A DNA stretch of 64,000 bases from Escherichia coli (GTDB lineage Bacteria; Pseudomonadota; Gammaproteobacteria; Enterobacterales; Enterobacteriaceae). The translations under genes and the position numbers were made by a program. Shown one piece after another: positions 32,075-33,178 of the stretch; the first letter of the stretch is position 1; each line of letters opens with the position of its first letter. The stretch lies in assembly GCF_024223415.1 (NCBI RefSeq), contig NZ_CP100500.1; one strand, written 5' to 3'. The notes under the pieces were generated by a model. The model saw nothing but the letters and a program-made list of their open reading frames with translations, did no database searches and was not told the DNA's origin.

Positions 32075-33178
32075 TCAGAACTGATAAGTCAAACCAACAG
32101 CGACAATATCATCGGTTAATACATCAGTTCTTTCAGTGAATTGATTCTTATCAAGCAGGTTGATTTTATAGTCTACGTATGTAGACATATTTTTGTTGAA
32201 GTAATAAGCAGCACCGACTTCAATGAATTTTTCAATGTATCCGTCATTATGTTTTTCAGGGATACCAGTTTTGGTGGAAAGGTCTTTGGCTTTCGACTGG
32301 ATATAAGCAAGAGACGGGCGCAAACCAAAGTCGAACTGATACTGTGCAACTACAGCGAAATCTTCAGTTTTATTGGCTACACCGTTGTAGCCGCCGGGCG
32401 AGTACTTGATTGCGCGGGTATTACGTGTTTCACCATAAGTGGCTGCCAGGTACAGATTATTCGCGTCATATTTTACGCTGGTAGCCCACTGTTCAGCTTT
32501 TTTACCTTTACCAAAAGTCGTCGCTTCCTGTGCATTGGTGCGATCGGCTGCACCATATGCAGCTACAAAACCAAAGCCTTCATATTCATAACTGACAGAG
32601 CCGCCAACACCGTCGCCGTTTGAAGTGCCTGCATTGTCACGCTCATTTTTACCCAGATACTGAACCGCAAAGTTCAGTCCATCAACCAGACCGAAGAAGT
32701 CGGTATTACGGTAAGTGGCAACACCACCTACACGACCCACGAAGAAGTTATCCCCGTTAACAGAACCAGGCCCAAATTCAGGGAGGACATCAGTATAGCT
32801 TAATGCGTCATACACCACGCCATAGTTACGACCATAATCCAGAGAGCCAATATTTTCTAGTTTCAGGCCAGCGTATGCCAGACGGGTTTTGTCTCCTGCA
32901 GAGCCATCTTTTTCTGCCTTGTTGCCTTTGAATTCATATTCCCATTGACCAAAACCAGTTAACTGATTGTTGATTTGGGTTTCACCTTTGAATCCAAGAC
33001 GGGCATAAGTTCCATCACCTTCTTCTTTGGCGTTAGAAGAAAAGTAATGTTTACCCACTACTTTGCCATATAAATCCAGTTTATTACTGTTTTTATTATA
33101 TATTTCTGCTGCATTTGCAGACATTGCCAGAAATACTGATGCTGCTACAGCAGAAAGTGCCACTGTTAAATTTTTCAT
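32075..33178 (-). CDS. phage-encoded general porin (OmpC/OmpF/NmpC family)
   Basis: Signal peptide [29 protein letters not shown] start of mature porin, C-terminal ...VAVGLTYQF beta-barrel terminus. Confidence 0.85.

Follow-up and report, generated by a model that had tools for sequence, protein, structure and literature searches.

An intact mosaic porin gene with an IpeX-like 3' untranslated region in a lambda-like prophage of Escherichia coli

What does a porin gene do for a lysogen when the prophage carries it on the strand opposite to its own late operon? The question is raised by a locus in the window analyzed here, a stretch of 64,000 nucleotides (nt) from contig NZ_CP100500.1 (assembly GCF_024223415.1), which is Escherichia coli DNA holding a lambda-like prophage. 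A reading of this DNA made from its letters alone, hereafter the sequence-only reading, described a complete OmpC/OmpF/NmpC-family porin with a signal peptide beside the late-gene antiterminator gene Q, and proposed that it can alter the permeability and receptors of the outer membrane. The evidence presented below makes it probable that the locus is a 'moron', a cassette for lysogenic conversion, of the type represented by lc in phage PA-2 and by nmpC/ipeX in prophage DLP12, one that would replace host porins while repressing them. The parts of the cassette are as follows.

31905..32074, minus strand: porin 3' untranslated region (3'UTR), an IpeX-like region of ~170 nt with three predicted stem-loops, the unpaired block CUUUCUGUUAUUUAUUACCG and an intrinsic terminator
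31915..31931, minus strand: terminator, made of the hairpin GGGCGC-UUU-GCGCCC and, after it, UUCUUUUAUU; the stop codon of Q is 24 nt away (terminator scan and fold)
31950..31969, minus strand: conserved unpaired 'seed' block, 19 of 20 nt identical between window-type and classical 3'UTRs
32075..33178, minus strand: porin coding sequence with an ATG start, 367 amino acids; signal peptide, residues 1-23 (33110-33178); mature protein, 344 residues
33185..33189, minus strand: Shine-Dalgarno sequence GAGGA, 6 nt before the ATG, read from the sequence
33244..33256, minus strand: two overlapping candidate -10 hexamers (TATACA), putative, 32-52 nt downstream of the CRP box
33288..33303, no strand assigned: perfect CRP core TGTGACCACCATCACA, centred 117.5 nt upstream of the porin ATG

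Integrity and mosaic composition of the porin

The open reading frame occupies exactly 32075..33178 on the minus strand, opposite to the late operon as the sequence-only reading had placed it, and Q converges on it, ending 183 nt from the porin stop codon. It contains no internal stop codon, and its product matches positions 1-337 of the 337-position Pfam profile Porin_1 (PF00267) with 425.3 bits against a cut-off of 23.7 (E 2.7e-127). The best solved-structure match is to E. coli OmpF crystal-structure sequences (PDB; 2OMF and others), which align with the window porin from end to end (E 1.5e-143). Both results agree with the description of a complete porin of this family. The signal peptide was assigned from the alignment with the OmpF cleavage site, whose context (ANA before the cut, AEIYNK after it) is common to the two N-termini, and the C-terminus, ...TYQF, has an aromatic end. 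Inactivating mutations, which the sequence-only reading had raised as a possible objection, were looked for through the reading frame and the full-length profile match, and no frameshift, stop or insertion was found. Compared with its nearest prophage allele, that of Ch1, the porin has a ratio of nonsynonymous to synonymous divergence (dN/dS) of 0.20 at a dS of 0.68, which indicates purifying selection on the protein. An identical protein is already on record under the name 'porin [Escherichia coli]'.

The gene is not, on its sequence, an ordinary nmpC. Its nearest NCBIfam model is OmpF (the equivalog NF007446), for which it scores 519.6 bits, below the cut-off of 583; it likewise falls below the cut-offs for the OmpC subfamily (460.9 bits against 484) and PhoE (437.2 bits against 599). 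The protein is 67.6% identical to K-12 OmpF and 67.3% identical to Lc/NmpC, in different parts of its length: residues 1-96 and 274-367 are Lc/NmpC-like, and residues ~97-273 are OmpF-like. Delimited by its best-fitting breaks, one between residues 96 and 122 and the other at 273/274, the central block holds 37 sites matching only OmpF and 6 matching only NmpC, and the remainder holds 10 and 36, respectively, a clustering reached by 0 of 300 permutations. The kinship with NmpC and Lc that the sequence-only reading had pointed to stands for the ends of the protein, at 67.3% overall; the whole is an OmpF/Lc mosaic, which that reading had missed. A database search with residues 105-292 returned no chromosomal donor of the OmpF-like centre above ~81% identity, except for a fragment of the same lineage, and the direction of the exchange cannot be told.

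Within the OmpF-like centre, the pore-lining residues K16, R42, R82, R132, D113 and E117 are all conserved. The tip of loop L3 reads PEFGPGS, compared with PEFGGD in 207 of 215 homologues; PEFGP was found in the window lineage only. Insertions and deletions relative to OmpF lie in segments that we take, from the OmpF structure, to be the external loops L1, L2, L7 and L8. Among public assemblies there are also porins in which the exact NmpC N-terminus is fused to exact K-12 OmpF (proteins P0003, P0008 and P0014), one of them with an OmpC C-terminus; such fusions might have arisen in nature by recombination of prophage nmpC with chromosomal porin genes, in the laboratory as hybrids, or as chimeras during assembly.

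A porin gene between Q and the lysis genes is a classical and very common arrangement, known since the 1970s-80s. Phage PA-2 (lc; J02580), DLP12 of K-12 (quuD, IS5-disrupted nmpC, essD) and PhiR11_1 all carry an opposite-strand porin between Q and the holin gene. Porins of such cassettes are encoded in 42 records of the phage collection, and the lc gene with its 3' flank was found at >=80% coverage in at least 2503 of 5426 complete E. coli genomes. The window allele itself is rare: the identical gene occurs in one of the 5426 genomes (strain GF60), an allele of ~80% identity in three, and the best 80 loci from IMG/VR comprise 3 of the window type and 77 of the Lc/NmpC type. The identical porin protein was found in 373 blocks of an assembly index. 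A literature search for phrases such as 'phage-encoded porin' gave no match. The locus is a rare mosaic representative, with testable peculiarities, of the lc/nmpC-ipeX kind, and the phenomenon itself has long been known. The sequence-only reading mentioned neither this history nor the documented route by which such cassettes change the host porins, namely the 3'UTR-derived RNA IpeX, of which a homologue, judged by alignment and predicted fold, is present here. Altered permeability and receptors are established biology for the homologous lc/nmpC cassettes, and the interpretation given in the sequence-only reading is supported.

The 3'UTR and its predicted pairing with ompF and ompC

IpeX is derived from a phage porin transcript and represses ompC and ompF (PMC12197685, PMC5069750, PMC7177473). 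The 3'UTR of the window porin aligns with the 3' flanks of lc and nmpC, and the window and PA-2 RNAs are predicted to share a common architecture consisting of a 15-bp hairpin (stem-loop 1, SL1), the shorter SL2 and SL3, an unpaired block and a terminator, with fold z-scores of -4.7 and -8.6, respectively. SL1 and SL2 persist, their base changes being compensatory; in place of the classical SL3 and terminator stand equivalents formed by unrelated sequence. Searched with a covariance model of 13 classical IpeX-type sequences, none of them of the window type, the 64 kb gave a single match, full length, at 31941-32077 on the minus strand (49.6 bits, E 6.8e-8). A permissive-threshold Rfam search of 31000-35000 returned no IpeX, only three tRNAs and sub-threshold noise (tmRNA-like, 20 bits; isrK, 18.7; STnc550, 17.8). 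On the plus strand, no T-run follows the terminator hairpin at 31915..31931.

The best-conserved part of the 3'UTR is the unpaired block, which reads CUUUCUGUUAUUUAUUACCG in the window and CCUUCUGUUAUAUAUUACCC in IpeX, and 14 nt of it (UUAUUUAUUACCGU) are identical to the 5' region of MicF. Predictions of whole-RNA duplexes with 170-nt partners produced meaninglessly long duplexes and were dropped in favor of tests in which the unpaired segment was compared with dinucleotide shuffles. The segment contains a 12-nt perfect complement of the K-12 ompF ribosome-binding site GGUAAUAAAUAA (positions -11..0), the same 12-mer with which MicF pairs, and a match of this kind was attained by 22 of 2000 shuffles. 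For ompC, the predicted duplex of the window RNA reaches -22.4 kcal/mol, as did 19 of 500 shuffles. The PA-2 IpeX gives a stronger ompC signal, with 15 contiguous base pairs (one wobble) at -21..-7, attained by 2 of 2000 shuffles, and a duplex of -26.1 kcal/mol, reached by none of 500 shuffles (-13.5 +/- 2.7). A second 9-bp stretch besides these 15 bp appears when the PA-2 record (L008, 2690-2725) is set against the K-12 ompC 5'UTR at -32..-6. According to a review, the effect of IpeX on ompC does not depend on complementarity alone. No pairing signal of the window RNA was obtained for the controls phoE, ompN, ompA and lamB or for the start region of the porin itself.

Insertion slot, expression signals and prophage neighbourhood

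On the far side of the porin lies a block that resembles a lambdoid late promoter region, with the following parts.

33569..33654, plus strand: pR'-like late promoter block, 86 nt (promoter scan)
33569-33574, plus strand: -35 element TTTACG
33591-33596, plus strand: -10 element TATCAT, separated from the -35 element by a 16-nt spacer
within the block, plus strand: conserved initial transcribed region TAAGAGTGGTT
33631-33650, plus strand: hairpin and T6 resembling tR'

We interpret it as pR', the late promoter, together with the terminator that directly follows, which fits the general account of lambdoid late regulation (PMC7547250), and the block is kept at 76-80% in >3400 E. coli genomes. In a porin-less O157:H7 prophage the block overlaps the last 23 nt of Q and extends beyond, with tRNA genes further downstream, whereas in DLP12, PA-2, PhiR11_1, the Ch1 prophage and the window it stands on the far side of the porin. 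Because the block abuts Q where the porin is absent and lies beyond the porin where it is present, the porin cassette (~1.7 kb, roughly 31892-33568) is read as inserted between Q and its target promoter, pR'. Its direction is convergent with Q and divergent from the late operon, and its G+C content is 31-48%, compared with ~51% in the flanks. The last ~15 codons of Q (31846-31891) differ from those of the porin-less O157 prophage from the point of sequence divergence onward, so the left junction of the cassette appears to lie within the 3' end of Q. Antisense late transcription through the porin was considered and rejected because the pR'-like block, standing to the right of the gene, directs transcription the other way. 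Rightward read-through from Q at early times may still enter the porin.

The signals for leftward expression complete a self-contained transcription unit: AT-rich upstream DNA bearing a perfect CRP site, then a Shine-Dalgarno sequence, the intact porin gene, the structured 3'UTR and its intrinsic terminator. The sequence TGTGA-N6-TCACA is matched once in the 64 kb (0.07 expected), by the CRP core at 33288-33303, and the Ch1 allele (79% identical) has a perfect core as well, TGTGATAGTGATCACA. CRP sites are annotated upstream of lc in the PA-2 record (J02580), the lc site being a poor match to the consensus. The region upstream of the window porin, very AT-rich at 31-32% G+C, showed no homology to that upstream of lc/nmpC; the similarity starts at the start codon.

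The surrounding genes place the cassette firmly within a prophage, which adjoins yehWXY-osmF and has its integrase gene at 17805-19091. All 24 contigs that were read with the identical porin protein show the same Q-porin-lysis prophage context.

31162-31476, plus strand: RusA
31457-31891, plus strand: late-gene antiterminator Q (Pfam Phage_antitermQ, PF06530, E 5.8e-52; the same gene is RefSeq-annotated in strain GF60)
33777..34009, plus strand: three tRNA genes between the pR'-like block and the holin gene, with anticodons CAU (Met by ARAGORN; Ile by RefSeq in relatives), Arg-UCU and Thr-UGU
34405-34620, plus strand: P21-type holin, first lysis gene of the late operon (Pfam PF04971, E 4.4e-35)
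between holin and lysozyme: DUF1327 protein
35498-36031, plus strand: lysozyme
36569-37051, plus strand: Rz

Several further observations concern this neighbourhood. The otherwise near-identical GF60 and Ch1 prophages carry tRNA genes for Ile and Lys instead, and their similarity to the window ends at ~34020-34046; the tRNA set looks like an exchangeable module. Right after the tRNA cluster, at 34017-34073, two successive plus-strand terminator-like hairpins overlap the weak Rfam isrK match (18.7 bits; gathering score 50), and Q-modified polymerase would have to read through them to get to the holin gene. At 34229-34287, a tRNA-like T-arm and acceptor fragment (GGTTCGATTCCGGCCGCCACAACC) coincides with the sub-threshold tmRNA match (20.2 bits; gathering score 47) and is not called by ARAGORN; it could be a decayed tRNA or an attachment-site remnant. 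Between the DUF1327/YdfR gene and the endolysin gene, a 127-amino-acid minus-strand reading frame (35124-35507) without a Pfam match may represent a second small opposite-strand insertion within the lysis cassette. Downstream of the tail-fibre genes, at 60481-62160, lies the gene for a trimeric-autotransporter adhesin of 387 residues that has a stalk and a YadA-type membrane anchor; this gene, a second outer-membrane cargo of the same prophage, is followed by one for a 151-residue sigma-70 region-4/helix-turn-helix protein. A side-tail-fibre pair is encoded at 57384-59788. Relatives of these fibres bind OmpC, and lowered OmpC could also exclude sibling phages. The C-terminus of J, 89-93% identical to J of VT1-Sakai, PhiR47_1 and others, pointed to no receptor for the prophage.

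Proposed role, rival explanations and known systems

Taken together, the porin, its 3'UTR and its position suggest the following course of events. The lysogen would transcribe the cassette from its own, probably cyclic AMP-CRP-activated promoter and independently of late transcription, since pR', on the right-hand side of the porin, faces the other way. The exported protein would assemble as a trimeric 16-stranded general-diffusion porin with an OmpF-like pore-forming centre, different surface loops and the altered L3 tip. Its 3'UTR would be released as an IpeX-like small RNA that lowers the translation of ompF, through the MicF-identical seed across the Shine-Dalgarno-AUG region, and that of ompC. 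The ribosome-binding site of the phage porin is not complementary to this RNA. The predicted net effect is that the major porins of the host, which are common receptors of phages and colicins, are swapped for a phage-made porin, leaving the cell permeable with a different surface.

Several points weigh against this proposal. The duplex of the window RNA with ompF, at -21.0 kcal/mol, was attained by 71 of 500 shuffles, and its longest ompC match, 13 bp including wobbles at the Shine-Dalgarno region, by 133 of 2000, both modest values; moreover, the ompF and ompC targets are K-12 sequences and not those of the window's own host. The pairing statistics of the window RNA are therefore suggestive, not decisive. 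The AlphaFold2 model of the porin, built from a 52-sequence alignment, is mediocre (mean predicted local distance difference test score, pLDDT, 63.6) and too poor for a fold search, and the trimeric 16-stranded beta-barrel is predicted from the ~67% identity to solved OmpF instead. Given the PEFGP tip, the pore properties may depart from those of OmpF in either direction. The candidate -10 hexamers are weak, and a consensus scan called no promoter beside the CRP box, only a weak site at 33415-33388. Upstream DNA of 31% G+C is of the kind silenced by H-NS. In addition, nmpC and ompN are termed 'quiescent' in some strains, as far as a title in the reference list of PMC3333887 indicates.

These points lend themselves to different explanations. 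The porin might be the whole of the cargo, an extra or alternative diffusion channel serving nutrient uptake or niche fitness, with the 3'UTR merely a structured terminator region; the porin is clearly intact and constrained, the pairing statistics are modest, and, compared with IpeX, other sequence has taken the place of SL3 and the terminator. We nevertheless regard this as unlikely. The IpeX architecture and the nearly invariant unpaired block have been kept despite ~40% divergence and the replaced hairpins, the 3'UTR is better kept between the window and Ch1 (89-95%) than the porin coding region (67-88%), and the homologous region has documented IpeX activity (PMC5069750, PMC7177473). An equally improbable alternative is that the gene is intact cargo that the lysogen does not ordinarily transcribe, with H-NS as one possible silencer, and that has no phenotype unless activated. 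The AT-rich upstream region, the lack of a strong sigma-70 consensus beside the CRP box and the naming of nmpC and ompN as quiescent genes fit it, whereas the dN/dS of 0.20 with an identical protein across hundreds of assemblies argues for use, and the perfect CRP box is kept in the Ch1 sister allele. In Schnaitman's work, PA-2 Lc was reportedly produced in lysogens; the PA-2 record also has Lc made in lysogens. A reading of the locus as a pseudogene or a remnant in decay, or as a chromosomal ompF with a prophage for a mere neighbour, is refuted by the sequence and has next to no probability left. The IS5-inactivated nmpC of K-12 and the best NCBIfam match, OmpF, would have been in line with it, but the frame is uninterrupted, the profile match is full length, the score lies under the OmpF equivalog cut-off, the ends are Lc/NmpC-like, and all contigs examined have the gene within the prophage, flanked by phage genes and placed between Q and pR'. 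The replacement of host porins combined with their repression remains, for us, the probable role of the cassette.

The Ch1 comparison adds a further aspect. The allele of Ch1, TUM1886 and CP033635 (WP_096986151 type) occupies the same prophage slot, is of the same mosaic type and likewise has the L3 tip PEFGP. Positions 33114-33813, which cover the signal-peptide codons, the upstream region with the CRP box and the pR' block, are 96-100% identical between Ch1 and the window, compared with 67-88% for the mature-porin coding region (~79% for the mature protein). Flanks this similar around a porin body with a dS of 0.68 indicate that the body has a history separate from that of its frame, within which it appears to have been exchanged or to have diverged. 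A more speculative idea, which we hold only tentatively, is that porin and RNA are matched as a 'replace-and-repress' pair through co-evolution of the seed and the porin body, the porin being exchanged as an allele within a conserved promoter/signal-peptide/3'UTR frame in a phage-borne surface-variation system. The OmpC/OmpD-like Lc/NmpC is accompanied by an IpeX that pairs best with the ompC Shine-Dalgarno region, and the OmpF-like hybrid by the MicF-identical, ompF-matching seed.

Porins are the main entry of hydrophilic antibiotics and serve as receptors for many phages, colicins and contact-dependent inhibition toxins. By silencing OmpF and OmpC and supplying a variant of its own, a prophage would shift antibiotic entry and receptor properties in one step. 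Should the 3'UTR act in the proposed way, nature would offer a second case of the IpeX mechanism, with a MicF-type seed that eases tests. The conserved frame around a divergent porin body suggests allele exchange among prophage porins, which bears on genome-based prediction of phage host range and antibiotic permeability.

Among known systems, MicF shares with the window RNA the 14-nt stretch in an unpaired region and the 12-nt ompF target. MicF is the product of a free-standing chromosomal gene divergent from ompC, whereas the window RNA is a porin mRNA 3'UTR unrelated in the rest of its sequence, and the longer MicF-ompF duplex (-27.4 kcal/mol) is not matched by the -21.0 kcal/mol of the window RNA. 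OmpF of E. coli is 72-91% identical to the central region of the window porin in windows and has the same six pore-lining residues. It differs in the signal peptide, loops L1, L2, L6, L7 and L8, the C-terminus and the L3 tip (PEFGGDTAYSDD in OmpF), and in that the window gene is prophage-borne.

The closest relatives in organization are the PA-2 and DLP12 cassettes. PA-2 has the same opposite-strand porin between Q and the lysis genes S/R/Rz. The signal peptide and first ~96 residues of Lc are 78-93% identical to those of the window porin (sliding windows), and homology extends to the C-terminal segment, to the architecture of the 3'UTR and to the pR'-like block on the far side of the gene. 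The two differ in that the proteins share 67% identity overall, the central ~175 residues of the window porin, including L3, being OmpF-like; the upstream regulatory DNA is non-homologous, and SL3 and the 3'UTR terminator are of other sequence. DLP12 of K-12 has the same order of quuD (Q), minus-strand porin, pR'-like block and essD, and the window 3'UTR is homologous to its IpeX-yielding region. Its nmpC is disrupted by IS5, whereas the window gene is intact, and porin lineage and promoter region differ. The seed blocks are one base apart (UUAUUUAUUACC in the window, UUAUAUAUUACC in DLP12 IpeX), and this single change makes the predicted match of the window RNA to ompF perfect and that to ompC weaker than in IpeX.

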